Assembly (NCBI GenBank): GCA_021513695.1
Contig: CP084166.1
Span: forward strand, 2,656,001-2,720,000
DNA from: Candidatus Heimdallarchaeum aukensis
Lineage (GTDB): Archaea > Asgardarchaeota > Heimdallarchaeia > Heimdallarchaeales > Heimdallarchaeaceae
Reading direction: 5' to 3'
DNA: 64,000 nucleotides
The notes under the pieces were generated by a model. The model was not told the origin of the DNA, made no database searches, and saw nothing but the letters and a program-made list of their open reading frames with translations. A program made the position numbers and the translations under genes. How positions within the stretch are numbered: the stretch's first letter is position 1; each line of letters opens with the position of its first letter. This document shows positions 9,395 through 26,440 of this stretch, one piece after another.

Positions 9395-10801
9395 TTAGAT
9401 AAAATCTCCCGTTTCTATTTTCTGTGGGAGGTAGAAGTTTGTAATAAATTGTGGGTCACGTGCATTTAATGCTTGTATTTCTGCTTTATAACCTGTATTT
9501 ATTAGGATTTCAAGTTGTTCTTGCCATTTTGGTTTTCTCTTTACGAACTCTTCTTCAAGCATTAACTTTGATCTTCTTATGTCTTTTTGAGTCATTTTGA
9601 TTAGTGCTTCTCTAGGAATATCAAATCCACTTTCAGGTTTTAGATCACTTGGGAGCAAACCTAACCATTTAATATTTGGCACTGCAAGATGGGTTGATTC
9701 GAAACTAAGAGCTTTACTTCCAACGCTATATACTCTCATGATTTCGAATCCGTAAGGGTCAGCATCCATAATGGCAAGAATAGGTAATTGTAAGTCATCA
9801 TTTATTTTCTTTAGAAACTGTCTTGTTGCCATGTCAGGTTGACCTTTAGCTGTAACTAAAATGCTTGGTACATAATCGTAAAAATGGTCTTCTGCTAACC
9901 TGTTAAAAATAGCATCTTTTTCAATAACTAAACAAAATTCAGCATCACTTTCTAAATCTTCGATGTCATCTATATTTGGTGAAATAGCTTTTCCTGAACC
10001 GATAGCTCTACAATCTATAAGATCACCCTTTTCCTTGAATTGTAACTTTCCTACAACAATACCTTTAGACGATGCACTAACATTTAGTGAAGTCCTCGTA
10101 GCTTGTATCATTGCTCCTAAATCTTCAATAAGAGAGTCTGATACTGCTTGTTTCTTAAACGCATTCACATTCATGTAGAAAATATCTCTTTTTGTACTGT
10201 GAATATCACGTGATAGTATGTCATGAAGAAGTCTCATTAATATTGACATTTGTTCAATCGTGCTTACAGAGGATAAACTCCTAAATTGGCGTTCTATCAT
10301 TTGTCTACCAATAAGTACTAATTCTTGTTCTTCATCAAAACCAATATTTCTCTTTCCTCTTGAAGGAATTTTAAAACTAGCTTCATCAGGTTTGTTAAGT
10401 GCTTCATTCAAAAATAATAATGCTGCTTCAACAATTTTATTTTTAGCTTTTTCCGAAGACATTGTTTCTACATTAGTTACACCATAAGGTAACTCATAAT
10501 CCTGCAATAAAGTAAGTTCGTTTCTAAGTTTCCTTATTTTATCAACTGGAACTTTTCTTTTTATTTCAATTCTCATTAATTCTTTCTTAAGAGGATAATT
10601 ACCTAAGGTTTTACCTTTCTCTAGAGGATACCACTTCTTTCCGCTTCTCAAAAAGAGTACAAAAGATCCTTTTTTAAGTTCAAATTCTTCTTGTAATATT
10701 TGAAATAATTCATTTATCTGAATACTGTTATCAAAACTCATTTTTACTTCAGTTGAAGGCAATATTGTTGCATTTTTTACTAAAAAATTATAGTTTACCA
10801 T
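9395..10801 (-). CDS. top6A: DNA topoisomerase VI subunit A (Spo11 family) with N-terminal extension
   Basis: It has the catalytic-tyrosine motif STKRDIFY (Tyr209 by my count), the Toprim Glu in CLVIEKDAIF, and the Toprim DxD in IMDADPYGFEI. At 468 aa it is about 100 aa longer at the N-terminus than the ~370-390-aa archaeal enzymes. Confidence 0.9.
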   Translation of the reverse strand: MVNYNFLVKNATILPSTEVKMSFDNSIQINELFQILQEEFELKKGSFVLFLRSGKKWYPLEKGKTLGNYPLKKELMRIEIKRKVPVDKIRKLRNELTLLQDYELPYGVTNVETMSSEKAKNKIVEAALLFLNEALNKPDEASFKIPSRGKRNIGFDEEQELVLIGRQMIERQFRSLSSVSTIEQMSILMRLLHDILSRDIHSTKRDIFYMNVNAFKKQAVSDSLIEDLGAMIQATRTSLNVSASSKGIVVGKLQFKEKGDLIDCRAIGSGKAISPNIDDIEDLESDAEFCLVIEKDAIFNRLAEDHFYDYVPSILVTAKGQPDMATRQFLKKINDDLQLPILAIMDADPYGFEIMRVYSVGSKALSFESTHLAVPNIKWLGLLPSDLKPESGFDIPREALIKMTQKDIRRSKLMLEEEFVKRKPKWQEQLEILINTGYKAEIQALNARDPQFITNFYLPQKIETGDFI

Positions 10802-10810
10802 TTTTCCACC
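10802..10810 (-). promoter_or_regulatory. 9-nt top6B-top6A spacer containing a Shine-Dalgarno-like GGTGG (translational coupling)
   Basis: The minus strand reads ...ACA AAA TGA GGTGGAAAA ATG GTA... The top6B stop is at 10811-10813 and the top6A ATG is at 10799-10801. Confidence 0.6.
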
Positions 10811-13800
10811 TCATTTTGTACTCCTTTTTTTGGTTTCAATTTTTGTATCAGCTGAAATTTCATCTAAAGTTGTTTGTTTTGTTCGCTTTGAAGTTGTTGT
10901 TTTCTTTGTTGTTGTACTTGGTCTCTTTGTTTTAGTAGTCGTTGTTTTCTTTGTTGTTGTACTTGGTCTCTTTGTTTTAGTAGTCGTTGTTTTCTTTGTT
11001 GTTGTACTTGGTCTCTTTGCTTTGGTAGTCGTTGTTTTTACAAAAGGAATTGTCTGTTTGATCTTCTTTATATCATTATAAGTCATCTCTAGCTTTCCTT
11101 CAAGCTGAGATGTCGGATAAGCAATAAATTCTCCAATTGTATTAATTCCAAGTGAGTTCAACTTATTTCGTATTTGCTGTTTAACATCTAATTTTTCTAT
11201 TGGCTCTTCTATTAACTTTAGTAATTTTTGAACATTTTTGTTTTTGAAAATATCTTTTCTCTTCGTACGATTATCAGCAAATATCAACTCTTCAAACGAA
11301 GATATCCCTATTTCTTTTAATTTTGATATAATCTCACTGCTCATAAATGGTGTACTTTTCACTATTTGCGTTTTACCCTTCTTTGCAATTTTTAGAGATT
11401 GAGGAGTTAAAGTTGCAAAATAGTTTCTTAACTGCCTTTCTGTTATATTAGTAATTTCAGTCAGTTCGTTAATTTTTGTATTAAAAACATCCCAGAGAGA
11501 ATACTTCTGTTTATGGTATAATTTAAAGATACTGTTTGGTTTATCCTGCATTAGTGCATAGAATGAGTAAATTGGGTATGAAAGAAGTTCTTTTAATGTG
11601 GATATCTGTCTGATTGATAACTCTGTTTGTTCTTTAATTCTCTTATCAGAAACTGATAAATGTATAATGTGGGAATACCCACCGTTTTCCAATATGGATT
11701 TTTCAGTATCTGAAAATAGACCTAAATCTTTAATCCTATAGCTATTTAGTTCTAATTGCTCTTTCACTTTAGTCATGTTAAGAGAGTTAAGAAGTTCAGT
11801 AAATTCTGCACGTTGTTTTTCTGTAAATTTAATCTGTAAATCATCTATATTTTGTAGGAAGAAAAGATCATAAACTTGTTCATAACCTCTTTTTGCTAGT
11901 TGAAAAAGTATATTCTTTTGACGTATAAATAATGCTAATGATGCTCTAAAACAAGAAAGAACATCTTTTACTTTCATGGATAAGTCGCTGATATTTTTCT
12001 CTTCAAACAAAGCAATTAGTTCACCTAATGAATTTATATCATTTTCATTTAGCTCGTTAATTATTTCTTTATCGTTTACAAAATCTATAAGTTTAGAATT
12101 GCTTTGAGATGCTAATGAATCTAGATCATGGAACGGAATTTGAGATAAAAGGTTTTTAAGGACAGTTATGTTTGAAGATTTATTTAATAATAGTAAATCA
12201 TAAACTGTTTTTGTATTACTTTTTAGTAGAAGCCTAAATGTTTCCTTACTCTCAAAGACAAGTGGAAGAGAGTAAATTTTTTGTTCAATTCTTAAACGGA
12301 GTTTTTCCGTGATCTTCCATCTCTTTGAAGTTTTTGATTTTGATACAATATTAAACACGTAAGCCTCTTCTATAGAGAAAATGTGACCTTGACTTAAAAC
12401 ATCTAATTCAGTTTTATCCAAAATTGTTTCAGGAATGGGGGTTAACTTAGATGCTAGAGTACGTAATGTTTCTAGTGATAGATTTCGAATCTGACGTATT
12501 AGTCTATTATCGTCGATTATCTGACTTAACTGGTATCTAGGTTTTAAAATTAAATCTCCTATTGTTAAGTTGCCATATTGTTTGAATTTCTCTTTATTTT
12601 CAAAACTTTCATTGACTAGCAAAATAACATGCCTATTTAGAAATTGTAAGTATTCATTAAAGTGTAAAGTTATGGTCTCTGGGAAAGAACTTGTAATTTT
12701 GTCAAATTGCTTTTTATCATATTTCTCCAAGAGAAGTAAGGATTCAAGGGTATATTGGACTTTTAGTTCATCTTTTTCAGGAAGATTCAACTTTTCTTCG
12801 AATTTGGTTGGTTTTGAGAAAATAAATGAGTAAATATCAAGTAGTCTCTTGGATACTTGAGAATTTACTTTTAGAGAATCATGATGTATATTGAAGAAAA
12901 CTAATTGTTGAAAACTTAAGTCTGGGAGTTTTTCGTCAAAATATCGCGAAGAGAGTTTTTGTAAAAGTCCAATTTTTGTTCTTAATGAAGGTGAAAGGTT
13001 AGAAACAACATCAGTGTTTTCAAAGAGATCAAGATAATTCTTAATACCATTTTCTCTCAATTCAGCAATATCAAAATCTTGTAGAACAATGTTTGTTTTT
13101 AGAGCAGGGGGGTTGCTTATTCTAGAAATAGTAATCTTACTAAGAAAAGTGTCAACTTCACTAATGTTTGTGCTTATAATTTTTGCAAGAGCTGGCTTAG
13201 ATAACAAAAGCATTTCTTGTAGAGTACTTACTTTGGATAAAAGTTTTAACCAATTTTCGAGAGGAAGTTGTGGGAAAGAAATCAGATAAATAGATTTGTT
13301 TAATATCTTTTGAACATTATTTCGTAATTTACTTCTCAATTTACAGTGTTTTTTTGATAAATCATAAACCAAATCGTCAATAACTGTATAATATTTCAGT
13401 AATTTTTTCTTTGTTTCACTATCAAACAGCATAATATTGGAAAGTTGAACTCTTTTATCTCTCAATTTTTTAATTGTTTTAACATTCAAAGTTGAGAGAA
13501 CATGATTAACTTTCTCAAGTTGTTTTTCTGATAAGAATGAAGAATATGAAATAGGTTTAATTAGTAAATCCTTTAGTGTTTCGATTTTATGTTCATTCAG
13601 TTTTTCTACTTCTTTTTCAGTGAAATCTGTTATTATAGAGACAGAACTGTTAAGGAGGTTTAGAATCTCTAATCCTGTTTTAGTAAGAAACTCTTTGTTC
13701 ATGTATAAAACAGAAATAAAATCAATGATATTTGAGATCTCTGGAATTTCAATGTTTTTGCTGAATAAGTTTTTTGAATTAATAGTACCAAGAAAATCTT

Positions 13801-16800
13801 TTGTCTTTAACGTAAGAGATAATGTTTTCTTTTTATCTTTAATCAGATTACTAATTATGGTGTTATAATCACCAAAGCTGACTAGTTGATCGTTTTTAAC
13901 AAGATCTCTGATGGTGAAAAGATTGTTGTCAAAGTATTTTGTTTCAATCTCTTCAAATTTTAAGGAGTTAATAGAGCTTAAGAATAGGATTGATGTATCT
14001 AAAATTTGTTTTATTTTTGTTCTTATTTTTTCTATCTTTTTAATATCATAAAGCCAGTTGTATATTGAATTCTCTTCTAAATCTGAAAAACTATAGAATC
14101 CATAAGATAACAAAGTAGATTTTTCTTTTTCACTAAGAAATGGTAAATCTACAAAATGATTTGGCTTATCTTTTTCAATTGTTTTCTTGATTTTATCAAT
14201 CTTTATTGATGAGCGTAGTTTCAATATTTGATCAAGTTTAATCCTTGATTCTTTTGCGACTGTTTTATACGGAATAAGCAGTAGATCTGCGATAGTGTAT
14301 GTTCCACCTTTTTTAAGGTTAGTTTCTATTTTCTCTTCTAGTCCTAAATATCGAATATTGGCTAGTAAATATGGGCTAATTTCTGCAAATATGCTCTTAT
14401 CTTTTAGATTAACATCTCCAAGTAATTCTTGATAAGATAAGTACCCAAGTTTCATTGCTTTTTCTTCATATGAACCTAAAGGAGGAATAAAACTTTCAAG
14501 ATGTAGATTTTTTAACATTGATAGACTTGATAAAATTTCATCAACCATTGCATCATCTAGATTTTGGATAGAGGAAATAACATCTATAATGTAAACTAAC
14601 TTCTTGTTATAACAAGATTTTATTGTATCTAATGTCAATATAGGTAGATTGTTTATGTTTCTACTTAATTTCATTCTAATATCTTTAATTTCTTCAATGT
14701 ATGAATCTGGTAGGCTTAAGAAAAACTCTTCAGGGAAGTAATATAGATATTCAATTGAGAAAACTCCCAAACTGTATAGCTTTTGAACTAATGACTTATT
14801 TAACTTTAAGTTTGCAATATCAAGAGTAGAGAATTGAAGGGAAGATAGATTCCTAATGAAAAGAGAATTGTTCTCTTTTATGGCTTTATCCAATTTTGGG
14901 AGAAGGGTTTCCCACAGGTGAATAGGAATATGAAGGTAGTCATAATATGTTTTTTTATTTTTTAAAGATTCATTAATATTTTTTGTTGAAATCCCGAGTA
15001 TACGCTCAATTGTCTTTATTGGTGTAAAGAGAATAGGTATATTCACTATCAACTTTTCTTTTTCATCTTTGTTTATTTCTAATTGATCTACATCATGATA
15101 AAATAGTTGAATTAAAGAGTAAATCTCATTTTCATTAAGATATTCGATTGTAGAAACCTCGGGTTTTTTGATTGTTTTTGGACTAGTACCTTCTTTAGCT
15201 TCACGTTTTTTAATAAGTGGAAGTTTACCCTCTTTTGTTAGTTCTTTTTCAGTTAAGGATGGTAAAAGGTTTAAGTCGATTCCATAGAGTTTAAGTTCAG
15301 AAACAATATTTCTTTTACTAATCTGTAATTTAATAGTGTTTATCTCTTTATACTCTATTTCAAATAATTTACCCAAAGAAACTGATGGAATAGATAAAAA
15401 TTCAAGTATAGTGTTAATCTTATTTTCAAAGAGAATAGAGTTTTGTTGCAATGAAAGTGAACTTAAGAAGGAAATTGGAGTTGTTCCAAACAATGAGAGA
15501 GTCTTTTTTATTGATGATAAATTCTTATCTTCTGAACTGTAATCCTGTAAACAAAGAAGTTGATCTAAATACTCAATATTAATCTTTTTTAGATATAGCT
15601 TCTGTTGTTTGGACAAAAATTTTACATCACGTAACTTAATTGCCCATTTAGGTATTTGAAAATCAGATAAAGAACTTACTACATATTCTGCTAGTTCTAT
15701 GTCAATATTGTCTGGAGGAAGAAGTAATAAATCAAGAATAAGTTTTTTATCTTCCTTCATCAAATTTCTCAAAAACTCAAGCTGATCTATTTGAGAAAAT
15801 TTATCTAACCAAATAATTGGATATTTTACCATACTTGTAAGAGAATTAGAATTACTAAAGAGAATTTGAGAACTTATGACAAATGGTTGAGGAAGCAGAT
15901 CTAGTAGATTAATAACATCGGGAGAGGTCTTAATGTCTAGTTTATCACTTTTATTTGATAGAATGTCCAGATGATCTTTGGGAATTAAGTTAACTAATTT
16001 TTCTTTAGAAAATTCTTTTACAAAACGGATAATCTCACTTCTAGCATTTGATGGAATAGTTCTCTTTTCTTCAGAGCTAAGAGTAAGAAGTTCAATAATA
16101 TTTTTAACTCCATTTTTCCATAAATCAAGTTTGACGTCTAAACTCATGTCTGAGATAGAAAAAATATTTAGACATAAACCATAGATTAGTTCTTCAAGTT
16201 TAGCAATACTACTCGCTTTTTCTATTTTTTCACTTTCTGAGAATATAAGCAAGTATTCTGGTACCAACCCAAAGATATCTTCAAATGATGCTTTTGAAAG
16301 GTTGAATTTAAAGTCTGTGAGTGTACTTATTAATTCTTTATCTTCTTCAAGAATAGGTATGCCTGAACTAAGGCTTATGTTTCCCTTTCTTTTATCTTTT
16401 AACTCTTCAGGAATGGAATTGAATATCTTCTTAAGATCTTTTTCTCTAACTATAAAGAGGTCAATAACTCGTAGAATGCGGTTTTTTGCAAGACTACGTT
16501 TAATAAAGCGTGAAAGGTTTGAAATTCTGAAGACTGAAGAGTTACAAAGAGAGAGAAAATTATCAATATTTTCCTTAAATTCTTCAGAAAATGATTTTAT
16601 TTGATAACAAAGACCATAAAGATCTTGAACTGTGTCCTTATTCAGTTTTTGTAAGCTAAGAAGATTTCTCTTTGACAATAACGCAAGAGATTCAAGTTTT
16701 ATTCCTTTTTCTTCAACTTCATTTAGTATTTTTTTAACTGAAATATTTTCTTTTATTTTGATAATTTCAGTTTCAGGTATGTCTAAAATTAATGATATCG

Positions 16801-19800
16801 TAGTGATGTCTTCTGTTAAGAAGGTGAGTATATCCCCGACGCCAGAATAAACAAGTTTTAACATTTGTTCTAACTCTAAATCCAAGAAGAATACAGATGA
16901 GAGATACAACTTTGCTTCTTTAAATACATTCATGTTCACTAGATATGGGTATGATTTTCTGATTTCAGACATTCTAGAAATGAAGTCTTGAATTGAATAA
17001 ATCCCTAATTCATGTAATTTTTCTACATATTCACTTGTTATTGATGGACAATTTTCTAGAGGAATTGCAAAACGAAGTCTTTTCTCTTTTAATTCATCTA
17101 AAGATAACAAGTCAAATATATGAAATTCATCATAAATAGGATTGTTTAGAATTTGTGATAATTGTCCTTTTTCAAAAAGAGACAAATCGATTACTGAGTG
17201 AATATCCTGTAATTCTAGTTTCTTTATTTCTTCAAAAGACAAGAAACTAAGAAAAGTTATTGAACCTGATAATATTTCTTTAAATTCTCTATATTTCTCT
17301 TGCTTTAAGATACTGGATGCACCCATTCTTACTCCAGCATAGTACAAAGTTTCTATGTCTGATATTCCTATATCTCGTAATTTAGAAATTTCAGTTTCCG
17401 TGATGAGAGAAGAAGGCATAATAGGGTGAGATCTTGCTTTGTGTAATTCAACAATTTCACTATAAGATAGATTTTCCTTTATTTCATTAATCCTTTTTTG
17501 TGTTTCATTAGATATTTCAGAAAGTTTTTTGGTTGGTGTTGAATAAAAGTCTATTAATGTTGTAATTGAAGATCTGCTAAGAGGAAGAGCAAGATTAACG
17601 TCCAAGTTTAGTGAAGAAATAGGAATAGACAAATCACCTATAAGTTTATCTAAACTATTTTCTTCACCTAGTTTGTTTTTAATTTCCAAGAGAGGAGAGT
17701 TCTCCTCGAATTCAAGTTCAAATAAGCTCCCTAAAGTAATTATAAAGTATTTATTCCTCATATCTTCACTTAAAAGATTGAGAAAAGGTGTAATTCCAAG
17801 TGGTAATTCAAAAACTGAACGAATAAGTGTAATGTTACATTTTTCAAAAGCTAATTGTCTTTCAAATTCGCTGAGGGTTTTTATCAAATCTGTGCTGGAA
17901 ATAACATCAAGTAATGTTAACTCTTCAATATCTTCCAGAATAGTAGAAAAGAAGTCTTTATTGTAAGCAGTTGCAGAAAGAAAATCAAAGTAGTGATAAG
18001 CTCTCAAGTCAATTAATTTAGAAGAATAGTCTGAAACAGTTCTAAATAGCGTTCTATCCGTTAAATCGCTATCTAATATGAATATTAAATGGTAAAGGTG
18101 GGTTATTTGGTTTTGATTAAAAATAGTCAAAGAATAATCTGAAATCTCCTGAAAAATCCGTAAAGGAAGTGATAATATTTTCTTTAATGTGAAAACTTTT
18201 CTCCAGATTGATGAGTTTCTGTCGATGAAAACTTCATCGGGACAGTAGAAAAGTTCTTGAATTGATTGAAATCCTTCATAACTGTAAATTGTTTCTCTAC
18301 TTAGCGTTCTTTGTTCATTTTTGTCAAAAAGTCTAGTTTCATATGCATAGATTGCTCGCGCCTCATATTCTTCTCTTATTCTCTGTGATGTTAAAATGTC
18401 AATTATTTCCTTTGTTTCTTTTGTTGTAATGTTTAGGATATTACTGAGTTTAACAGATGAAGTAGAAACGAAATCAACTATAGTTAATATACCCGCTTTT
18501 CTCAATTCTTCAGTTTGTGAAAAAGAGATATTTGGTAAGAAATAAACAGGGAGACTGAAAAAGTAAAAAATTTCACCAAGATCTAGACTTCTCTTAATAT
18601 TATCAAAACGTTCGTCGGGAATCCCTGTTCTTTCCATTAGAACTTTAGATGACGTAAGTAGAAAACCTAACAATGTATTTATTTTGTTTTTCTTTAAGAG
18701 CTTAATTATATCTGGATCTAACATGTCTGACAAGTGCTTAAATCGTAAATTTAGCACATTTTTTAAATTCTGAACTATCTCCCATGGAATTGTTCTTATT
18801 GCCCATTTTTCTTGCTGAGTAGAAAAGTATAGGTCCTCAATGGTAAAGATGTTGTTAGTTTCTAAAATTTCTACTATCGATGGTCTAAAGATATCAAGTT
18901 CAGAAATATCTGTTCCAGTTTCACTAATCCTGATATTTTTCTTGTATTTTTTAGCTTCTTCTAAATCAATTTTTAAAATAGAAGCGATTGTTTCATCACT
19001 AACAAGGAAAAAGTCAATGATTCTTCTGATTCCAGTTTTTCTTAGAGCATTCAGCTGTTCATGGGATAAGCTTGTTATTTCAATTTCTTCAATTTCTTCC
19101 TCTTGTTTTGTTTCTTCATTTAATATCTTCTTCTTTGTGGTTTTTTCCCAAGTAACTAGCGTCAGGGGAGAACGCAATAGTTTCTTGAATTTTTCAATTA
19201 CACCCCATTTTATTATGGGAGCACCAAAAGTGTAAGGGTGTGTTAAATAAAATAGCTGGTCTATAGAATTGTAACCAATAACAAGTAAAGAACGGATTTC
19301 TTCAGGTGAAAAACGTTCTGAATTTTCAAAATCAAAGGAGATTATTGATTCATACTTACCACTAGATACTTTCTCGTAGAATGGTTGTCCATCTCTATTT
19401 ACATCAAAATTGTTTATTAACTCATCAAAATTCTTCTTTGAAAAATTAAGTATCGTGCTTAATTCATCAAAACTGTAATTTAAAAATTGGTGCAGAGAGT
19501 AAATCTTTTTTGAAGCTAATACTTCATAATCTTTAAGTTTCAAGCTTTTTATACGAGTGATTGGTAATTGCAAAAACTGATAGAAATCAATTATTTCGTG
19601 AGATAACAAAACTTTTTCTGCAAACTCATCAGTATCTTTAAGATTTTTACTATTTATATTGTCGTAGAGTTCAAGTAAAATTTTTTTGTCTTTATTTTTT
19701 GAAATTTCTGTCTCAATAAATACAGGTGTAAGTTGAAGGAAATCTCTTATTGTATTTACATCCTTGGTTTTGAGCTTAAGAAGAGCATCATTCAATGACT

Positions 19801-22800
19801 TTGCTTTAGATTTTGTTGGGGCTAACTTTGCTAAAAATATTAGATCTTCATTCATGAATTCTCTAAAGTTATTCATCTTAGTTAAAAGATCTGAAATCGA
19901 CGGAAGTTCTTCTTCAATATAAAAGTAAAACAACTCTTGTATTGTTGTTTGTTGTTCATTGAATTGCTTAACCAATCTTGGAAAGTGTTTTTTTATTATT
20001 TTTAAATTTCCTTTGTATCTTTCTTTATTTTTTGTAATCTTGTTAGCAGATATACTTTGTTTTAGACGTATAATTTCTTGTTCGTTAAGGTTTAATACCA
20101 AAGAGAGTTCTTTATTACTCCATATTAGAAACCTGCCTATACAGTTTACTCCAATTTCATTCAAAACGTTAATTTTCTCGTTTAGTTCAGGAAAAGCAAA
20201 AATCAAGGGAGTTCGTAATAGTAAGTAATCTGAAACATATTGTTTCTTTGTTTGTTCATCTTTAAATTCAAAATTCTCTGGTTGAGAATATAGAATGTCC
20301 TCTACTGTATAAATTTCATATTTACTTGCTTTGTTCTTCAAAGATAGAAAGTTAGGAATGGGCGTACCTATCTTTTTCTTTATTCTTGCAATCTCGCTTT
20401 TTAATAAACCCATTTCGCGTAATTTTTTCGATGGTGTAATCAAGAATGATGTGGAAGTAAATATCTTGTTTTCTAGCAATTTTTCTTCAGCTTTTTCACT
20501 AATCACTTTTAAGTGTGATAGGTCAAGGTCTTTATTTACTTCATTAAGATGAGAAAGAATGCGAAACTTTGATTCTTCTAATAGACTATCAACAAAAACA
20601 CTTAGTTCTTTTTTCATTAACGTTCTTAATTTAGCGTTTGCATATTGTGCTAAGGTTTCTATATTCGCTGATTTAAGACTGTCTAGTATGTTTTTTCTTA
20701 TATTGTCATCTATGGTTGATATTAGTCCTAGTTTGTTAAGAGGGATAGATCTCTCGCTGTTAGCTAGAATAGTGAAAAATCTAGTATAAATAGAACGCTC
20801 TAATTCTTTGATTTCTAAAAGGTCTTTAGTTGGCGTTTTAAGAAAATTATCTATTGTCTCTATCTTTCTTCTATGAAAAGCATTTTTAGAATATCCATCT
20901 ATCCAATCAGGTTTCATTTTTGTAATGTTGACCTTTAGAAAATCAGGAAACTTTTCTGAAACATGTGAAAATACCTTTTTAACGTAATCAATCAACATTT
21001 CTGTTAAATCATTATCATATTTAAACGAAAAAGGCTCATTGAACTTATAAATAAAATCCTCTAACCCCTTAAACTTATTTGAAAAGTTGGGATAACTTGT
21101 TTTTATATAATTGAAATCTGGATACAGAAATTCTTCTTTTAACTCTGAATAATCAGACATAGTTTCTAAATTAAATTTAAATTCTTCGATAAAGATCGAC
21201 AACTCTACTGTTTCTTGGCCATCTTGAGATTTTGTAACTTCGTTAATTAGCTTAAATTTGTTATCTTCTATTAGACGTTCTACTAAACCTTCAACTAAAC
21301 GCAATTGTGTAGCTTCTGTAGCTAAATAATGATAGCTATTTTGAATCCATCTTTGATATAATGCTTCATTGAAACTACTACTAGTTCCTTGACGTGCAAA
21401 CCTCTTATCTATCATTTTATTTGTTAATGCTTTTAGTGGGAGTTCAGGGCTCAACTTAGACCTGTCTAGTTCATAAATTGTTCTTTGTTTTATTCTTGAA
21501 ACTTCTTTTTTTGAAAGATTCAAAATAGGAGCTAGTTCTGAAACAGGTATGGAAAGAAACTTTCCAATTGTTAAAATATCACTTTTAGCACAACTTTTCT
21601 TGTATTTATCAGGGCACCACACATTAAGTTCAAAAATGGGTGTCCCTAAAGGAACAAAATTTCTAATTTTCTTTTTTGCTCCGTGAGCTAGAGCTGCTGC
21701 AACTTTATATTTTTCTTTATTTATGTTTGTATAAACTATTTTTTCATTCTCTAAAATTCTTGCGAGGTTATCAATTACAACAGGTGCTGATCGTACAAAA
21801 CGGGATAATCGTGCATGTTCTCTTTTCCTTCTTTTTGCTCTACTAAGGAATGTTTTAAGTCTTCTACCAAGTTGTTGTAAAGCTAACCTAATCTCTTCTT
21901 CAATTTCTGGGACGGTTGAGATATACTCCTTACTCGTTTCAGGAAAAGGTATTTTTGTACTTACAATTGATACTGCAATCGCGAGAGGATCTGATTGTCT
22001 TGTAAGACCGTATTCACTCCAATTAAGCGAAGAAACTACTTTTGTAATAACGTCATTTCCCGCACCAAAAATTAAAGGAATTCTATTTGCATATCGATAA
22101 ATTATTTTGTTGTCGACTGACGTGCTTCCTTTTTGTTGAGCATATTTTGATACTCCCCCCCCATAACCTATTGCTGCTTCAACGATAAAAGGATGACCAG
22201 AATAAGCTTTTGGAGGACGAGAAATCGCTTCTACAAACTCTGGTTCAAGTTCTTTTTCTAAACCTTTTCTTAATCTTGCTGCTCCTAAAGGAGAAAGAGC
22301 ATCACCTTGTGGAGCATCAAATCTAAAGATTCTATCTCTTTTTCTTTTTATTTCTTTAGCCTCTTGGTAGGCTTTGATAAATCCTTCATGAACTATTCTT
22401 CTAATTTCTTTAGAAGTAAGGTCGCTAGGCTTTTTATTAGGGTCAATTTCTAAAATCTGAAAGAACTCTTCAGCTACTTCTTTTCTTACTCCCATAAAAT
22501 CTTTTGACAGAAAATCAACTAGATTTTCTGCAGAAGTAGCAGCAATTTTTGCTTTAAACTGAGTGATATCACATCCAAATGGGTGTAACTGAATTACTTT
22601 AGGAGGGTCGGGCATATCATCTACTACTTTTTGGAAAACTAATGTTTCACTTGTTCCTTCTTCATCTCCTGGAAGAACTACAGTAAAACTTGCATAGGGA
22701 GTAATTATAGCTAATTGTTTAAAATACTCCTTAATACTGTTCTTTGCTAGATTCCAAGCTCCAGTAAAAGTTATACTTATCTCAGTACCGCTAGTGTGCA

Positions 22801-23365
22801 AATATCCTGGGTCATCTGGATTATATTCGTGTTGTTCCATAATAACAGGTTCATTTTTTTCCAAGTTGATCATTAAATGAACTTCTGTAGTCATTTCTTC
22901 CATGAAGTATCTGCTCTTTATCCTTGCAGGAAGATCTACAGATGACATAGAATGTAGTAGACACATCTTGGCTCCTAAACCAAATCTGCCTCTAGTTTGA
23001 ATTACTCCATATTTTGTTCCTGTTAATACTCTACCAAAAAGATTTGGAATCTCATGACCAGGAACACCTACACCGTTATCTCTACATGTTAACTGAAGAA
23101 AATCAAGATGTTTTTCTAACTGTTTATATCTGGTAATATCTAATAATTCATTAATTTCAGAACTTGATAACTTCCTTAATTCAATATATATTTCAGGGTT
23201 CACACCTAGTTTTTCTGCTGCATCTAAGCCATTCTCGACCAATTCTCTAACAGAGGTAAAAACAGCTCGCATCGAGTTGCCAAAACCTGCAATGGCCTTA
23301 TTTTCATTGAAGAAAGCAGCTGCACTCATTTTTCGTGTTTTATTTTCTTCAGCCACAAAATTCAC
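10811..23365 (-). CDS. top6B: giant DNA topoisomerase VI subunit B fusion protein (Top6B core + ~3,500-aa HhH-like repeat array + basic K/T-rich tail), 4,184 aa
   Basis: This is a single uninterrupted 12,555-nt ORF. The N-terminus is colinear with Top6B: FFNENKAIAGFGN..RAVFTSVRELVENGLDAA (Bergerat N-box), RDNGVGVP (G1), TRGRFGLGAKM (G2), HPFIVEAAIGYGGG and YRYANRIPLIFGAGNDV (transducer). The start is uncertain. The track's GTG 23365 lies inside the AAGGAGTG SD-like string, so GTG 23356 (8 nt after GGAG) or ATG 23329 are more plausible. Confidence 0.9.
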   Translation of the reverse strand: MNFVAEENKTRKMSAAAFFNENKAIAGFGNSMRAVFTSVRELVENGLDAAEKLGVNPEIYIELRKLSSSEINELLDITRYKQLEKHLDFLQLTCRDNGVGVPGHEIPNLFGRVLTGTKYGVIQTRGRFGLGAKMCLLHSMSSVDLPARIKSRYFMEEMTTEVHLMINLEKNEPVIMEQHEYNPDDPGYLHTSGTEISITFTGAWNLAKNSIKEYFKQLAIITPYASFTVVLPGDEEGTSETLVFQKVVDDMPDPPKVIQLHPFGCDITQFKAKIAATSAENLVDFLSKDFMGVRKEVAEEFFQILEIDPNKKPSDLTSKEIRRIVHEGFIKAYQEAKEIKRKRDRIFRFDAPQGDALSPLGAARLRKGLEKELEPEFVEAISRPPKAYSGHPFIVEAAIGYGGGVSKYAQQKGSTSVDNKIIYRYANRIPLIFGAGNDVITKVVSSLNWSEYGLTRQSDPLAIAVSIVSTKIPFPETSKEYISTVPEIEEEIRLALQQLGRRLKTFLSRAKRRKREHARLSRFVRSAPVVIDNLARILENEKIVYTNINKEKYKVAAALAHGAKKKIRNFVPLGTPIFELNVWCPDKYKKSCAKSDILTIGKFLSIPVSELAPILNLSKKEVSRIKQRTIYELDRSKLSPELPLKALTNKMIDKRFARQGTSSSFNEALYQRWIQNSYHYLATEATQLRLVEGLVERLIEDNKFKLINEVTKSQDGQETVELSIFIEEFKFNLETMSDYSELKEEFLYPDFNYIKTSYPNFSNKFKGLEDFIYKFNEPFSFKYDNDLTEMLIDYVKKVFSHVSEKFPDFLKVNITKMKPDWIDGYSKNAFHRRKIETIDNFLKTPTKDLLEIKELERSIYTRFFTILANSERSIPLNKLGLISTIDDNIRKNILDSLKSANIETLAQYANAKLRTLMKKELSVFVDSLLEESKFRILSHLNEVNKDLDLSHLKVISEKAEEKLLENKIFTSTSFLITPSKKLREMGLLKSEIARIKKKIGTPIPNFLSLKNKASKYEIYTVEDILYSQPENFEFKDEQTKKQYVSDYLLLRTPLIFAFPELNEKINVLNEIGVNCIGRFLIWSNKELSLVLNLNEQEIIRLKQSISANKITKNKERYKGNLKIIKKHFPRLVKQFNEQQTTIQELFYFYIEEELPSISDLLTKMNNFREFMNEDLIFLAKLAPTKSKAKSLNDALLKLKTKDVNTIRDFLQLTPVFIETEISKNKDKKILLELYDNINSKNLKDTDEFAEKVLLSHEIIDFYQFLQLPITRIKSLKLKDYEVLASKKIYSLHQFLNYSFDELSTILNFSKKNFDELINNFDVNRDGQPFYEKVSSGKYESIISFDFENSERFSPEEIRSLLVIGYNSIDQLFYLTHPYTFGAPIIKWGVIEKFKKLLRSPLTLVTWEKTTKKKILNEETKQEEEIEEIEITSLSHEQLNALRKTGIRRIIDFFLVSDETIASILKIDLEEAKKYKKNIRISETGTDISELDIFRPSIVEILETNNIFTIEDLYFSTQQEKWAIRTIPWEIVQNLKNVLNLRFKHLSDMLDPDIIKLLKKNKINTLLGFLLTSSKVLMERTGIPDERFDNIKRSLDLGEIFYFFSLPVYFLPNISFSQTEELRKAGILTIVDFVSTSSVKLSNILNITTKETKEIIDILTSQRIREEYEARAIYAYETRLFDKNEQRTLSRETIYSYEGFQSIQELFYCPDEVFIDRNSSIWRKVFTLKKILSLPLRIFQEISDYSLTIFNQNQITHLYHLIFILDSDLTDRTLFRTVSDYSSKLIDLRAYHYFDFLSATAYNKDFFSTILEDIEELTLLDVISSTDLIKTLSEFERQLAFEKCNITLIRSVFELPLGITPFLNLLSEDMRNKYFIITLGSLFELEFEENSPLLEIKNKLGEENSLDKLIGDLSIPISSLNLDVNLALPLSRSSITTLIDFYSTPTKKLSEISNETQKRINEIKENLSYSEIVELHKARSHPIMPSSLITETEISKLRDIGISDIETLYYAGVRMGASSILKQEKYREFKEILSGSITFLSFLSFEEIKKLELQDIHSVIDLSLFEKGQLSQILNNPIYDEFHIFDLLSLDELKEKRLRFAIPLENCPSITSEYVEKLHELGIYSIQDFISRMSEIRKSYPYLVNMNVFKEAKLYLSSVFFLDLELEQMLKLVYSGVGDILTFLTEDITTISLILDIPETEIIKIKENISVKKILNEVEEKGIKLESLALLSKRNLLSLQKLNKDTVQDLYGLCYQIKSFSEEFKENIDNFLSLCNSSVFRISNLSRFIKRSLAKNRILRVIDLFIVREKDLKKIFNSIPEELKDKRKGNISLSSGIPILEEDKELISTLTDFKFNLSKASFEDIFGLVPEYLLIFSESEKIEKASSIAKLEELIYGLCLNIFSISDMSLDVKLDLWKNGVKNIIELLTLSSEEKRTIPSNARSEIIRFVKEFSKEKLVNLIPKDHLDILSNKSDKLDIKTSPDVINLLDLLPQPFVISSQILFSNSNSLTSMVKYPIIWLDKFSQIDQLEFLRNLMKEDKKLILDLLLLPPDNIDIELAEYVVSSLSDFQIPKWAIKLRDVKFLSKQQKLYLKKINIEYLDQLLCLQDYSSEDKNLSSIKKTLSLFGTTPISFLSSLSLQQNSILFENKINTILEFLSIPSVSLGKLFEIEYKEINTIKLQISKRNIVSELKLYGIDLNLLPSLTEKELTKEGKLPLIKKREAKEGTSPKTIKKPEVSTIEYLNENEIYSLIQLFYHDVDQLEINKDEKEKLIVNIPILFTPIKTIERILGISTKNINESLKNKKTYYDYLHIPIHLWETLLPKLDKAIKENNSLFIRNLSSLQFSTLDIANLKLNKSLVQKLYSLGVFSIEYLYYFPEEFFLSLPDSYIEEIKDIRMKLSRNINNLPILTLDTIKSCYNKKLVYIIDVISSIQNLDDAMVDEILSSLSMLKNLHLESFIPPLGSYEEKAMKLGYLSYQELLGDVNLKDKSIFAEISPYLLANIRYLGLEEKIETNLKKGGTYTIADLLLIPYKTVAKESRIKLDQILKLRSSIKIDKIKKTIEKDKPNHFVDLPFLSEKEKSTLLSYGFYSFSDLEENSIYNWLYDIKKIEKIRTKIKQILDTSILFLSSINSLKFEEIETKYFDNNLFTIRDLVKNDQLVSFGDYNTIISNLIKDKKKTLSLTLKTKDFLGTINSKNLFSKNIEIPEISNIIDFISVLYMNKEFLTKTGLEILNLLNSSVSIITDFTEKEVEKLNEHKIETLKDLLIKPISYSSFLSEKQLEKVNHVLSTLNVKTIKKLRDKRVQLSNIMLFDSETKKKLLKYYTVIDDLVYDLSKKHCKLRSKLRNNVQKILNKSIYLISFPQLPLENWLKLLSKVSTLQEMLLLSKPALAKIISTNISEVDTFLSKITISRISNPPALKTNIVLQDFDIAELRENGIKNYLDLFENTDVVSNLSPSLRTKIGLLQKLSSRYFDEKLPDLSFQQLVFFNIHHDSLKVNSQVSKRLLDIYSFIFSKPTKFEEKLNLPEKDELKVQYTLESLLLLEKYDKKQFDKITSSFPETITLHFNEYLQFLNRHVILLVNESFENKEKFKQYGNLTIGDLILKPRYQLSQIIDDNRLIRQIRNLSLETLRTLASKLTPIPETILDKTELDVLSQGHIFSIEEAYVFNIVSKSKTSKRWKITEKLRLRIEQKIYSLPLVFESKETFRLLLKSNTKTVYDLLLLNKSSNITVLKNLLSQIPFHDLDSLASQSNSKLIDFVNDKEIINELNENDINSLGELIALFEEKNISDLSMKVKDVLSCFRASLALFIRQKNILFQLAKRGYEQVYDLFFLQNIDDLQIKFTEKQRAEFTELLNSLNMTKVKEQLELNSYRIKDLGLFSDTEKSILENGGYSHIIHLSVSDKRIKEQTELSIRQISTLKELLSYPIYSFYALMQDKPNSIFKLYHKQKYSLWDVFNTKINELTEITNITERQLRNYFATLTPQSLKIAKKGKTQIVKSTPFMSSEIISKLKEIGISSFEELIFADNRTKRKDIFKNKNVQKLLKLIEEPIEKLDVKQQIRNKLNSLGINTIGEFIAYPTSQLEGKLEMTYNDIKKIKQTIPFVKTTTTKAKRPSTTTKKTTTTKTKRPSTTTKKTTTTKTKRPSTTTKKTTTSKRTKQTTLDEISADTKIETKKRSTK
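10883..11035 (-). repeat. 45-bp tandem repeat encoding the (KRPSTTTKKTTTTKT)n basic tail of the giant ORF
   Basis: Plus-strand copies at 10911-10955 and 10956-11000 are identical 45/45. Flanking copies (11001-~11035 and ~10883-10910) are diverged. The protein reads TTTTKAKRPSTTTKKTTTTKTKRPSTTTKKTTTTKTKRPSTTTKKTTTSKRTKQTT. Confidence 0.9.
11048..21730 (-). repeat. protein-level array of degenerate ~60-70-aa helix-hairpin-helix units (RNA polymerase alpha-CTD-like / RadA N-domain-like) within the giant ORF
   Basis: The recurring pattern is P-h-x-x-L.....L...G-I/V-x-T/S-h-x-D/E-h-h...S..-L..IL.h...E...I. Examples are LRKAGILTIVDFVSTSSVKLSNILNITTKETKEIIDIL, LNEIGVNCIGRFLIWSNKELSLVLNLNEQEIIRLKQSI, LRKTGIRRIIDFFLVSDETIASILKIDLEEAKKYKKNI, LKKNKINTLLGFLLTSSKVLMERTGIPDERFDNIKRSL, LKEIGISSFEELIF and PIEKLDVKQQIRNKLNSLGINTIGEFIAYPTSQLEGKLEMTYNDIKKIKQTI (last unit, nt 11048-11203). 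I recognised roughly 35-45 units by eye. The repeats are degenerate at the DNA level. aa ~640-890 look non-repetitive and aromatic-rich. Confidence 0.6.
21731..23365 (-). other. portion of the giant ORF corresponding to a canonical Top6B (GHKL ATPase, H2TH, transducer), aa 1 to ~545
   Basis: The motifs listed for the parent CDS apply here. The last recognisable Top6B-like helix is EIRLALQQLGRRLKTFLSRAKRRKREHARL (aa ~491-520, nt ~21806-21895). The domain boundary is approximate. Confidence 0.75.
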
Positions 23366-23503
23366 TCCTTATATTCCGAATTAATGTACAAACATACATT
23401 CTTTTTCTATTATTTAAAGATAAATTAACCGTTTTAATAATTTAGCGCTTTAGGATTGAAATACAAAAAGTGAAATAATAAAATAAAAAATAGAGAAAAT
23501 AGA

Positions 23504-26440
23504 TTATTTTTTCTTGCGGAACAATTGTTGTTTTACTGGTTCTGGATTAATTGTTAGAGAAGAAACAATTATACCAAGTGTTAGAATAAATAATGCTGCA
23601 AAAGCCCCTCCAGTTCTGTAAGAGTCAGCTCTTCCGATTATTGAGAGGAACTCATCTTCTATTTGTTTAGCAAGGTTATCTGTGGAATATAGGATATCTT
23701 CGAGCCAGAATAAGTTTGCCATGTCTGCAGTAAGTTTTGGATAAGTTTGATGCCATGTTCTGTATTTATATTGAATGTCTTCAGTATCTTCTACAACATC
23801 TTCATCAAGGAATGGATAGTACTCAATATATTGTCCTGCATAAGTGTTGTATTGTACTCTATCTCTTCGTTCAAGAATTGTACCAGTTGTTGGGTCAGTG
23901 AAGATCTGTTGGAAGTGGAATTCATCACGTATAGAACCTGGGAAGGTGTGAGTGATATAAATATCGTCATTCTTCCAATCGGTACCATGAATTTGGTTCC
24001 ATCTTCCTACATGGACGAAACTCTCGTTTAGGTAGTCTGCATACTCTTGCCAGTATAAATCGTATTGATCGACTTGTAGGTAAGGTTGTTGTGTATCTGC
24101 ATAATAAATGTAAGCATCTCTACCATACATGATTGTTTTATCTCTGGCTGAATCAAATATAAATGGACGATAGAAGTACTCAACCCATCTTTGTGTAAAT
24201 CCTCTTTCTGTGTTTGGAGGTAGGACATCTAATCCATAAGTTTCACTAAATGGTTCAAACTGTGTAGTCTTCATTGGCCAATTGTTTAATTGAACAAAAG
24301 AAGCTTTATCCCAAATTTCAACGAATGTTCTTAATTCGTCTCTATGTAAGACATCACTGAATGAACCTGAAGAATAGGTTATGTGTATTAATCCTTTTGA
24401 ACCATCTGCAAGGTAAATGTTTTCACCAGAAGCATAAATATCGTATGCTTCTCCGTCACTATCATAAGTTGCTAAACTTGTTAAGGAATTGACGTTAGAT
24501 GCATCAACTACAATCAAACCATTTTCTCCAGCAGTGAGATATAGCAGATCGTTGTTTTGGTATAGGTTGAAGAATCCACCAGAAACACCAAAGTCATATG
24601 TTCCTATTTGAGTTAAGGTGTTTCCACTAATGGAATAAACAACAAGTCCTAAGGTGTCATCAAGAACATACAGAGTTGTTCCATCTAATAATAACTGAGT
24701 TGCTCCAGTAAGAGAAACGTTTGCTAATGATTCTAATGTAACTGCATCAAAAACTTCTATTCCTCGTCCCTGTTCAACAGCATAGGCTTTTGTTCCATCA
24801 GTTACAACAGCTGTAACAGGAGATTCAGTCTCTTTAAGTGTGTTTAGTGATATGTCTCCTCCATTAGTAGTTGCTTTAGCTAATCCATATTGACCCATAG
24901 CGATGAGCATAAAAGTCTTTGTTGGATTATATTCAAGGTCTAAAGCGTTTATATCTCCTCCATTGGTCCAAACTGTAATTTGGTCAATTTCTGTAAGATC
25001 AGACATATCTAATGAAACTATTCCTTTTTCTCCTGCTGCTACGTATGCAAAATCGCCATATAAACTAGTTTCAAAAGCGATGTCTCTGAAGAAATAACCT
25101 TGTAATCTGTATCCACCAATACCCAAAAACAAGGGGCTGGATGTGTTTACTATTCTAAATCCTCTATTTCCTTCAATAACATAAGCGAATTCGTCATTCA
25201 TTTCAACCTTATAACTTTGAGATTCTTCGAAGGTTGGTATGTTGGCTATTCCAATGATTTCATCAACTTTTGTTATATTATCTCTTCCTGTTTTAACAGC
25301 GTATAATAGGTCTGTTGAAGGATCAACTGAGTCAACTGCAAATGACTGATTAACTAAGAAAGGATATTTTTTTCCGCCGAGGAGTGGATCTTCAACTCCT
25401 GTAACCCATTCTAAAGCTGTTCTTTCACATATGTATGATATCTTGTTTTCATATAACCAGTTTAAAGCAGGTGTACCAGTAAGATATCTGATGTATGCAG
25501 CAAAAGATTGAGCTTGTTCTAGTTCCTCTGGTGTATCGATGTCATAAATTTCTGCTAACTTTTGAGTTACATTAATTGTGAGGATTGAGGGGTCATAGCT
25601 TAACCCTTGGACTAAATCAAGGAAGTACTTCATAGAACCGGCTTCTCCAGTGAATAGAGAATAATCATGACCATCTGCAGTAATTGCATTAAAGAGAATT
25701 TTGTAGGCTGTAGCGCTATCAAAGTTAATATCAGTGTGGTCAGGACGTGAGTTGATCCACATGTGAGGGCTATATTTGATACTATAAATTAGGTCGTTAG
25801 TTTGAGCATATGCCTTATTTAGCACAAGTTTAGCAATCTCACTGTTGTTGTATCCTAAACCTTCTAACTCGCTTCGAATCATAAATCCTGCAACATAAGC
25901 TTGTAAACCATATTCTGAACCATTACCAAAATTTTTCACATAATATGGCCAGAGGTAGTTATAATTGATGATTTTCTCATTACCTGTTAATGTTGAAAGT
26001 GTTTTATTTAAAGTGTATTGTTTCCGTTCGGTGTAAACAACATAATCATTTTCTTCACTATAATCAATTACAAATTTCTTCACTTCTAAGTCAAATACTA
26101 GTTTTCCTGGAATACCTATGTAAGTAATTGGAGTGTTCTTGTACAAGTATGCGTTTCTATCACTTATGTTGTAAAATTCTATATACGTATGAGCGTAATA
26201 ATTACTATCATCAGAGTATTTAGCAACATACATCCAATCAGAGTAATTGTCGCTTCCTCCTTCATAAGGATCAAGATCGTCTTCTGTAATCATACCATAC
26301 TCATTTAGCTTCTCTTCTATTTGATTATTGATTTTAATAGTTTGAATTGGTAACATTACGCCAACTGCGATAGCTGATCCAGAAGTTAAAATTAAAATAA
26401 ATATTCCTAACATTACACGGAATTTTTTCTGCATAGTCAT
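23504..26440 (-). CDS. LVIVD-repeat (beta-propeller) surface protein with N-terminal signal/anchor and C-terminal TM anchor
   Basis: The N-terminal hydrophobic segment is VMLGIFILILTSGSAIAVGVML, and the C-terminal one is FAALFILTLGIIVSSLTI followed by a basic tail. The repeated motifs are FAYVIEGNRGFRIVN, FAYVAAGEKGIVSLDMSD, AYAVEQGRGIEVFD, LYVLDDTLGLVVYSI, LYLTAGENGLIVVDASN and IYLADGSKGLIHI. Confidence 0.6.
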   Translation of the reverse strand: MTMQKKFRVMLGIFILILTSGSAIAVGVMLPIQTIKINNQIEEKLNEYGMITEDDLDPYEGGSDNYSDWMYVAKYSDDSNYYAHTYIEFYNISDRNAYLYKNTPITYIGIPGKLVFDLEVKKFVIDYSEENDYVVYTERKQYTLNKTLSTLTGNEKIINYNYLWPYYVKNFGNGSEYGLQAYVAGFMIRSELEGLGYNNSEIAKLVLNKAYAQTNDLIYSIKYSPHMWINSRPDHTDINFDSATAYKILFNAITADGHDYSLFTGEAGSMKYFLDLVQGLSYDPSILTINVTQKLAEIYDIDTPEELEQAQSFAAYIRYLTGTPALNWLYENKISYICERTALEWVTGVEDPLLGGKKYPFLVNQSFAVDSVDPSTDLLYAVKTGRDNITKVDEIIGIANIPTFEESQSYKVEMNDEFAYVIEGNRGFRIVNTSSPLFLGIGGYRLQGYFFRDIAFETSLYGDFAYVAAGEKGIVSLDMSDLTEIDQITVWTNGGDINALDLEYNPTKTFMLIAMGQYGLAKATTNGGDISLNTLKETESPVTAVVTDGTKAYAVEQGRGIEVFDAVTLESLANVSLTGATQLLLDGTTLYVLDDTLGLVVYSISGNTLTQIGTYDFGVSGGFFNLYQNNDLLYLTAGENGLIVVDASNVNSLTSLATYDSDGEAYDIYASGENIYLADGSKGLIHITYSSGSFSDVLHRDELRTFVEIWDKASFVQLNNWPMKTTQFEPFSETYGLDVLPPNTERGFTQRWVEYFYRPFIFDSARDKTIMYGRDAYIYYADTQQPYLQVDQYDLYWQEYADYLNESFVHVGRWNQIHGTDWKNDDIYITHTFPGSIRDEFHFQQIFTDPTTGTILERRDRVQYNTYAGQYIEYYPFLDEDVVEDTEDIQYKYRTWHQTYPKLTADMANLFWLEDILYSTDNLAKQIEDEFLSIIGRADSYRTGGAFAALFILTLGIIVSSLTINPEPVKQQLFRKKK

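Follow-up and report, generated by a model that had tools for sequence, protein, structure and literature searches.

A giant topoisomerase VI B subunit bearing a multi-thousand-residue array of helical modules in archaea of the Heimdall group

In the window (the whole stretch of 64,000 nucleotides analysed here, from contig CP084166.1 of Candidatus Heimdallarchaeum aukensis), the B subunit of topoisomerase VI (Top6B) is encoded by a giant gene, in which a canonical Top6B core is followed in the same reading frame by about 3,600-3,640 extra residues, making the protein about eight times larger than normal. Topoisomerase VI (Topo VI), the type II topoisomerase of archaea, is ancestral to the meiotic Spo11 complex. 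To our knowledge, the enzymes used in mechanistic work on Topo VI have all had A/B pairs of about 45 + 60 kDa. With a conserved and strongly selected B subunit of ~485 kDa, Topo VI would become a machine in the megadalton range that carries two very large arms of repeats. The hosts are members of the Heimdall group, among which are the archaea thought to be the nearest to eukaryotes. The finding bears on the targeting of a crossing-sensing decatenase on a chromosome with both gyrase and histones, on the evolution of the accessory or tethering regions of type II topoisomerases, and on the capabilities of very large tandem arrays of the alpha-CTD/RAD51-NTD type. The features of the giant gene and its surroundings are as follows (window coordinates):

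23366..23503, minus strand: A/T-rich upstream intergenic region; AAGGAG precedes the GTG at 23356
10811..23365, minus strand: giant top6B ORF, GTG start, 4,184 codons plus stop, no internal stop, ~485 kDa
21731..23365, minus strand: canonical Top6B core, aa 1-545 (GHKL ATPase, H2TH region, transducer and C-terminal helix)
21608..21730, minus strand: conserved linker, aa 546-586, from the transducer helix to the first module, with the invariant W583 (alignment columns)
11051..21607, minus strand: array of alpha-CTD/RAD51-NTD-like four-helix modules, aa 587-4105
20861..21364, minus strand: early-extension motifs, the most conserved outside the core (17 homologues, down to 24% identity)
10814..11050, minus strand: basic Lys/Ser/Thr-rich C-terminal tail, aa 4106-4184, net charge +20, pI 11.3
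10892..11038, minus strand: 45-nt tandem repeat, 3.3 copies, 97% identity, encoding TTTKTKRPSTTTKKT
10802..10810, minus strand: 9-nt spacer with GGTGG, from the stop of top6B to the ATG of top6A
9395..10801, minus strand: top6A, 468 aa, TP6A_N and Toprim domains, with an N-terminal extension of ~110 aa

The first-pass annotation of this DNA had called a single uninterrupted 12,555-nt minus-strand ORF, which starts with the motifs of Top6B and is followed after 9 nt by top6A. This description was borne out in full: the 4,184 codons are free of internal stops, every motif position is exact, profile searches recognise the N-terminal region as Top6B, and top6A lies downstream in the same orientation. 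Judged from its sequence, the region spanning residues 1-545 is a complete Top6B, the B subunit of a genuine type IIB topoisomerase. First, residues 7-550 pass the curated NCBIfam equivalog cut-offs of both PRK04184 (470.8 bits versus 274) and TIGR01052 (400.6 bits versus 380.7), and the Pfam domain Topo-VIb_trans matches the transducer at residues 352-518 (193 bits). Second, residues 8-540 align end-to-end with the Top6B of S. shibatae (2zbk_B, E = 3e-88), and the alignment with the M. mazei subunit (2q2e_B, E = 6e-67) ends at residue 541. Third, the catalytic Glu/Asn (N-box), the G1 DxGxG, the G2 GxxGxG and the switch Lys are all kept in the alignment with S. shibatae; the sequences ELVENGLDA (41-49), DNGVG (96-100) and GRFGLG (126-131) match the ATP-binding motifs of the S. 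shibatae Bergerat fold, and the switch lysine is the K of ETSKEY (476-481), which is aligned with the lysine of S. shibatae AGKES. Further core motifs are HPFIVEAAIGYGGG (391-404) and YRYANRIPLIF (423-433), whereas in the WKxY motif of the known Top6B the K is replaced by Ser (WSEY). An AlphaFold2 (AF2) model places the long C-terminal helix of the core at residues 486-540. The length of 4,184 aa falls outside the range of ~470-680 aa, which is a usual and not a defining property of Top6B; normal-sized proteins make up the majority of the core-homologue matches. The true start is probably the GTG at codon 4 (window 23356), because AAGGAG lies 8 nt upstream of it and the N-terminus then has the same length as in the homologues; the protein would thus comprise 4,181 aa.

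An artefact, i.e. a chimeric assembly or a frame left open by chance in AT-rich DNA, has a negligible probability and is already refuted. What speaks for it is confined to the C-terminal 45-nt tandem repeat, inside which short-read assemblies break. The Logan assembly of SRR15988954 is 100% identical to the window: the ORF runs unbroken for 4,125 codons in one contig, which breaks in this repeat, and a second contig restarts within the repeat and continues into top6A; this second assembly shows no stop or junction. At 29.7% G+C, the probability that a frame of this length is open by chance is ~1e-158, and the remaining five frames each hold 149-498 stop codons over 10811-23365. A scan of species-representative genomes yielded 28 orthologous loci, all from MAGs of Heimdallarchaeota; one of these genomes, that of Ca. 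Heimdallarchaeum endolithica PR6 (CP084167.1), is complete. The Top6B frame is open to the end of the fetched DNA in 25 of these 28 loci, and for at least 3,880 codons in 19 of them; the orthologous loci are overwhelmingly single ORFs and not separate genes. The window is 86% identical to PR6 at the DNA level and therefore comes from a sister species, and a more distant locus (L026, 59% core identity) carries a complete 3,460-codon gene abutting top6A. The dN/dS values calculated against PR6 are far below 1, at 0.01-0.02 for the core; across the extension, which is under purifying selection, each bin of 300 codons gives 0.03-0.17. The extension is also colinear across orthologues, at 22-53% identity (core, 71-75%).

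In an exhaustive HMMER search, residues 541-1740 of the extension matched only 39 of 1.84 billion representative proteins, at least 14 of which are full-length, with the Top6B core at the N-terminus and the array behind it. These full-length giants fall into two size classes, 3,483-4,341 aa and 2,269-2,967 aa, exemplified by NPD87881.1 (4,170 aa, Asgard group) and MHA2296358.1 (2,412 aa, Hodarchaeales); their database annotation is plainly 'DNA topoisomerase VI subunit B'. A few matches are assigned to Thor- or Lokiarchaeota, an assignment of doubtful reliability. In the top 120 core homologues, a module following the core is limited to the Heimdall/Hod group, and the Top6B of Njord-, Kor- and Bathyarchaeota and of plants end in short tails devoid of it. 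A single-module precursor at the C-terminus of a normal-sized Top6B from other Asgard archaea, TACK archaea or plants was also considered, and none occurs in these 120 homologues. An 800-aa piece of the extension used as the query retrieved only three partial 'hypothetical' Heimdall proteins, an exact-sequence database look-up of the giant Top6B returned no record, and its closest core homologues in the protein database are all 'partial', cut by contig ends. Gene calling and short-read assembly often cut the gene short or divide it, the weak points being the C-terminal repeat and A-runs, and Asgard Top6B phylogenomic marker sets consequently use fragments. Topo VI and HhH-type modules were already known, as was a topoisomerase carrying HhH domains in tandem; what appears to be new is a Top6B with a module array of thousands of residues, the sequences of which are public and auto-annotated as Top6B. 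Neither a giant Top6B nor the repeat array is described in the searched open-access and bioRxiv literature on Topo VI, Asgard archaea and replication, in agreement with the first-pass statement that none of the characterised archaeal enzymes (Sulfolobus, Methanosarcina) is known to have a multi-thousand-residue DNA-binding appendage.

The modules of the array are of the helix-hairpin-helix (HhH) type, with the SAM-like, four- or five-helix, two-hairpin fold of the RpoA alpha-CTD and the RAD51 N-terminal domain (NTD). The Pfam family RAD51D_N scored 61.5 bits (cut-off 27.3), as a sum over many weak stretches of the extension; RNA_pol_A_CTD scored 27.7 bits (cut-off 23.8) at residues 1911-1967; and the module profile matched the RpoA CTD with E = 2.6e-4. 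Applying hhalign to slices of the ortholog alignment, we detected modules of ~60 aa each, 28 of them at a probability of at least 80% and about 40 at 20% or more; a repeat HMM enriched with orthologues came out narrower. The region that follows the transducer is all-helical in a confident AF2 model, with a helix at residues 552-561 of the linker, and the module spacing in this model would extrapolate to about 54-55 modules. The three-dimensional evidence comes from AlphaFold models; one of them, of residues 1401-2200 and built on a four-sequence alignment, was for the most part of low confidence (pLDDT 50), and only its residues 40-260 were used. About one third of the extension has no recognisable module, and Pfam scans of these stretches and of the tail gave nothing over cut-off. 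The Gly of the first hairpin is present in 12 of the 28 modules, and the second hairpin of the giant Top6B has no conserved Gly. The early-extension motifs are ALxRRWIxNxYxYLAT (residues ~668-684, with the invariant W673) and DWxDGYxKNAFxRRKI (residues 820-835, with the invariant W821).

In three relatives (L002, L027 and L032), the annotation gives a Top6B of normal or medium size and, behind it, one or two more ORFs; in one case these are a 622-aa Top6B and then a 2,996-aa ORF. These loci raise the question of whether the fusion exists in the gene alone, with core and array made as separate polypeptides through an internal start, proteolysis, frameshifting or premature termination. We regard this as very unlikely. 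At these loci the frame is indeed interrupted, either at the passage from core to array or inside one of them, but the breaks occur at different positions (residues ~525, ~870, and ~610 plus ~1,260), they sit in A-runs or in a ~95-nt deletion with no start codon there, and the homology to the intact protein crosses the frame change in all three. Moreover, L032 has an uninterrupted counterpart of 2,318 aa that is 92% identical, and the frame is intact in 25 of the 28 orthologous loci. The frame is fragile at the split loci because the sense strand is rich in A-runs, with 120 runs of at least five A, eight of which have seven or more. A true split-gene design was rejected on the same grounds, namely the homology across the breaks and the lack of a suitably placed start codon; we read the split loci as probable sequencing or assembly errors, or recent lesions, and a real tolerance of splitting is possible. 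The short isoform that the first-pass annotation had suggested, made by premature termination, is unsupported. Oligo-T tracts are mildly depleted overall (30 observed versus 43 +/- 4.5 expected), and no internal termination signal was found at the junction of core and array, the T5 tracts being scattered and not clustered there.

As a step towards the function of the extension, we looked at its charge. The array has a net charge of +5 over 3,560 aa (pI 7.9), and it is acidic in 12 of the 14 full-length homologues (net -17 to -112, pI 4.9-6.5). The conserved module columns are hydrophobic core positions, and none of the basic columns is conserved. The only strongly basic part of the extension is made of its last ~80 residues; equivalent tails, with a net charge of +19 to +27 over 80 aa, occur in the homologues of 3.5-4.3k aa, and the tail is weaker in the smaller (2.3-3.0k aa) Hodarchaeales-type proteins. 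Within the array, the modules starting at residues 892, 958, 2287 and 3012 are consistently basic across homologues, and several others are consistently acidic. The alpha-CTD and the N-terminal domains of RAD51 paralogues are contact modules for both DNA and protein, and in this fold protein-protein contacts are as frequent as DNA contacts. The alpha-CTD residues that contact DNA are R265, N268, G296 and K298, and these are not conserved in the module consensus. Taken together, the charge pattern appears to speak, indirectly, against uniform DNA binding along the array. The 'enormous non-specific DNA-binding scaffold' of the first-pass annotation thus stands in part only: the HhH-type fold of the modules fits it, but the array is neutral or acidic and has no conserved basic positions.

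From these lines of evidence, we tentatively propose, at slightly less than an even chance, that the extension is a structured arm or platform which, by means of its basic tip, some of its modules and its contacts with proteins, tethers or organises Topo VI. The giant Top6B would be the working ATPase (B) subunit of the A2B2 enzyme. The C-terminus of its core would lie at the base of the transducer stalk, beside the DNA gate of Top6A, from where the chain would run on into a folded array of ~3,560 residues and 40-55 modules and then into the basic tail of ~80 residues. Each holoenzyme would thereby carry two arms of ~400 kDa and exceed 1 MDa in total. The arms would serve mainly as a structured tether or platform and not as a continuous DNA sheath: the basic tail, together with those few modules that are consistently basic, would bind DNA or chromatin, and the many modules of neutral or acidic charge would provide rigid spacing and surfaces for contacts with proteins. 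On the chromosome, the arms may in this way serve to anchor Topo VI, to concentrate it or to organise it, and may specialise it, for instance in decatenation or in the capture of crossings, in lineages that also have gyrase. The data show the ORF, its catalytic core, the operon with top6A, the conservation and purifying selection, the fold of the modules and the pattern of charge; from these we infer the anchoring role, the partners bound and the effect on topoisomerase activity. The weaker basic tails of the Hodarchaeales-type proteins of 2.3-3.0k aa count against the tether model, and they indicate that the basic tip is not the whole story.

Two other readings of the arm draw on the same data. 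If most modules bound duplex DNA non-specifically, the arms could coat the DNA next to the G-segment, or wrap it, over hundreds of base pairs, or else they could capture T-segments, in the manner of the 12 (HhH)2 domains of Methanopyrus topoisomerase V (Topo V) or of the C-terminal domains of GyrA/ParC. The fold would suit such a wrapping or processivity role, for the modules are of the two-hairpin HhH type and both the RpoA alpha-CTD and the RAD51 NTD, which share it, bind DNA; in addition, the array is predicted to begin where the flanking G-segment DNA would exit, and in Topo V tandem (HhH)2 domains do wrap DNA and raise activity (PMC9489208). We nevertheless consider wrapping unlikely, given that the Topo V track is positive whereas the present array is nearly neutral and mostly acidic in the homologues, that its conserved columns are hydrophobic and none is basic, that the hairpin Gly is kept in fewer than half of the 28 modules, and that there is no sequence or structural match to the Topo V repeats. 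It is because of the array charge and of the conservation pattern of the modules that the structured arm is favoured over wrapping. At the other extreme, the array might have no role on DNA and be a scaffold for proteins only, its SAM-like modules associating with each other or recruiting histones, SMC or replication factors. We hold such a scaffold to be improbable in view of the conserved basic tail and of a few modules of consistently basic charge; the housekeeping genes next to the giant top6B point to no partner.

A further reading, which we consider quite unlikely, is that Topo VI, through its giant arms, is part of the structure of the chromosome in addition to being an enzyme. The arms would self-associate, or bind DNA and the proteins of chromatin, and so build an axis or scaffold. 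Were this the case, Topo VI would be an archaeal functional counterpart of eukaryotic topoisomerase II in its scaffold or tether role, and this would have arisen in Heimdallarchaeaceae and Hodarchaeales, the archaeal lineages closest to eukaryotes.

Similarly to the archaeal Top6B of known structure (S. shibatae, 2zbk/1mx0; M. mazei, 2q2e), the giant has the canonical core and lies in an operon with top6A. The known proteins, of about 470-620 aa, terminate with one or two helices or, in the case of M. mazei, with an Ig-like domain of ~100 aa, whereas the giant has ~3,640 more residues consisting of all-helical modules and a basic tail; the beta-rich Ig-like C-terminal domain of the M. mazei type appears to be absent, as the post-transducer region is modelled as all-helical. 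As for the fold of the modules, the RpoA alpha-CTD and the NTD of RAD51, RadA and RAD51 paralogues occur once per protein, on a flexible linker, whereas dozens of such modules are concatenated and apparently packed in the giant. The C-terminal region of eukaryotic topoisomerase II is a non-catalytic, basic, chromatin-tethering element. It shares with the giant arm the concept of a non-catalytic tether or DNA-binding partner, as do the accessory proteins BIN4/MID and RHL1 of plant Topo VI (PMC9665070). The topoisomerase II tail is disordered and the plant partners are separate proteins, whereas the extension is a folded repeat array, for which no homology to the topoisomerase II C-terminal region, BIN4/MID or RHL1 was detected. 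The only other known topoisomerase with a long tandem array of two-hairpin helical domains is Topo V of Methanopyrus kandleri, whose 12 (HhH)2 domains form a positively charged track, wrap the DNA and increase activity (PMC9489208). Its catalytic domain is of type IC, unrelated to the type IIB of the giant Top6B; it has 12 domains as compared with ~40-55; and its repeats form a positive track with AP-lyase sites, whereas the array of the giant is neutral, and acidic in most homologues. No match of either sequence or structure to the Topo V repeats was found, and the resemblance would be convergent at best. Villain et al. (2022) reported that gyrase-bearing archaea evolved C-terminal additions to Top6B, which were proposed to specialise Topo VI (PMC9348778). 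Like the extension of the giant, these additions follow the transducer and occur in gyrase-encoding Asgard lineages; unlike it, they are small globular domains modelled on representative sequences, with no mention of a multi-thousand-residue array (PMC9348778).

Downstream of the giant gene, the TGA stop codon (10811-10813) and the ATG of top6A (10799-10801) are separated by a 9-nt spacer, in which the ribosome-binding-site-like GGTGG implies that top6B and top6A would be co-transcribed and translationally coupled. The Top6A protein, encoded on the same strand, scored 68.8 bits with TP6A_N and 200.6 bits with Toprim, and its RDIFY and DADPYG motifs were found by inspection; a Pfam scan of its N-terminus gave nothing over cut-off. 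The 64-kb window contains neither tRNA genes nor Rfam matches. In the Hodarchaeales locus L032, gyrA adjoins top6B; both this adjacency and the Top6B additions of gyrase-bearing archaea (PMC9348778) are consistent with the tether model.

Two motifs of the early extension (the first part of the region beyond the Top6B core), ALxRRWIxNxYxYLAT and DWxDGYxKNAFxRRKI, are near-invariant among homologues of the giant Top6B down to 24% overall identity, and the tryptophans W583, W673 and W821 are invariant among homologues. From this conservation, we propose the two motifs as a candidate specific contact site. In the comparison with the sister species Ca. Heimdallarchaeum endolithica PR6, the final third of the giant ORF has a synonymous divergence of 0.28-0.43, down from about 0.9 before it, and a slightly raised dN/dS. 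The lowered synonymous divergence may result from a recent recombination between lineages. These two regions of the window are as follows:

20861-21364, minus strand: the two early-extension motifs (aa 668-835 of the giant Top6B)
10814-14365, minus strand: stretch of low synonymous divergence from PR6 (aa >3000)

Frame changes, occurring at A-runs or at a deletion of about 95 nt, break the giant gene in three MAG contigs of relatives, so that gene callers give a "normal" Top6B plus "hypothetical" ORFs. Two of these loci, L002 and L032, come from the sister JGI samples 3300041086 and 3300041085, respectively. The breaks are located as follows:

L027, about 6745-6760
L032, about 3195 and about 5020
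L002, about 5925-5970

The sense strand of the giant top6B (window 10811-23365, minus strand) is rich in A-runs (120 of A5 or longer), and its T runs of at least five are rarer than in synonymous-codon shuffles (30 versus 43 ± 4.5), none being as long as T7. This scarcity over 12.5 kb fits with an avoidance of archaeal oligo-T terminators.

Regarding the start of the giant top6B, an AAGGAG sequence lies 8 nt 5' of the second in-frame GTG (codon 4, 23356; window 23351-23370, minus strand). As the homologues begin at the position equivalent to this GTG, the maximal ORF probably has three residues too many at its N-terminus. The genes flanking top6B are as follows:

Window 23504-26440, minus strand: 978-aa protein with a weak LVIVD-repeat match, immediately upstream of top6B
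L032 (Hodarchaeales contig Ga0452209_041493), 1-3204: gyrA, then top6B

The upstream neighbour has a counterpart of 1,008-1,022 aa in the relatives' loci L002 and L003, showing that synteny is conserved. In L032, top6B starts at 1369, directly after the end of the co-oriented gyrA at 1368, thereby placing the gyrase and giant Topo VI genes directly next to each other.

On the other side of the giant gene, Top6A carries an N-terminal extension:

10472-10801, minus strand: about 110 aa (aa 1-110), outside the coverage of the Top6A profiles

The sole match of this extension is a weak one to the ubiquitin-like domain FERM_f0 (E = 0.013, below cut-off). Elsewhere in the window, a 379-aa ORF (30959-32098, plus strand) matches the tubulin/FtsZ GTPase domain with 31.3 bits, just below the Pfam cut-off of 33, and may encode a divergent Asgard tubulin-family protein.
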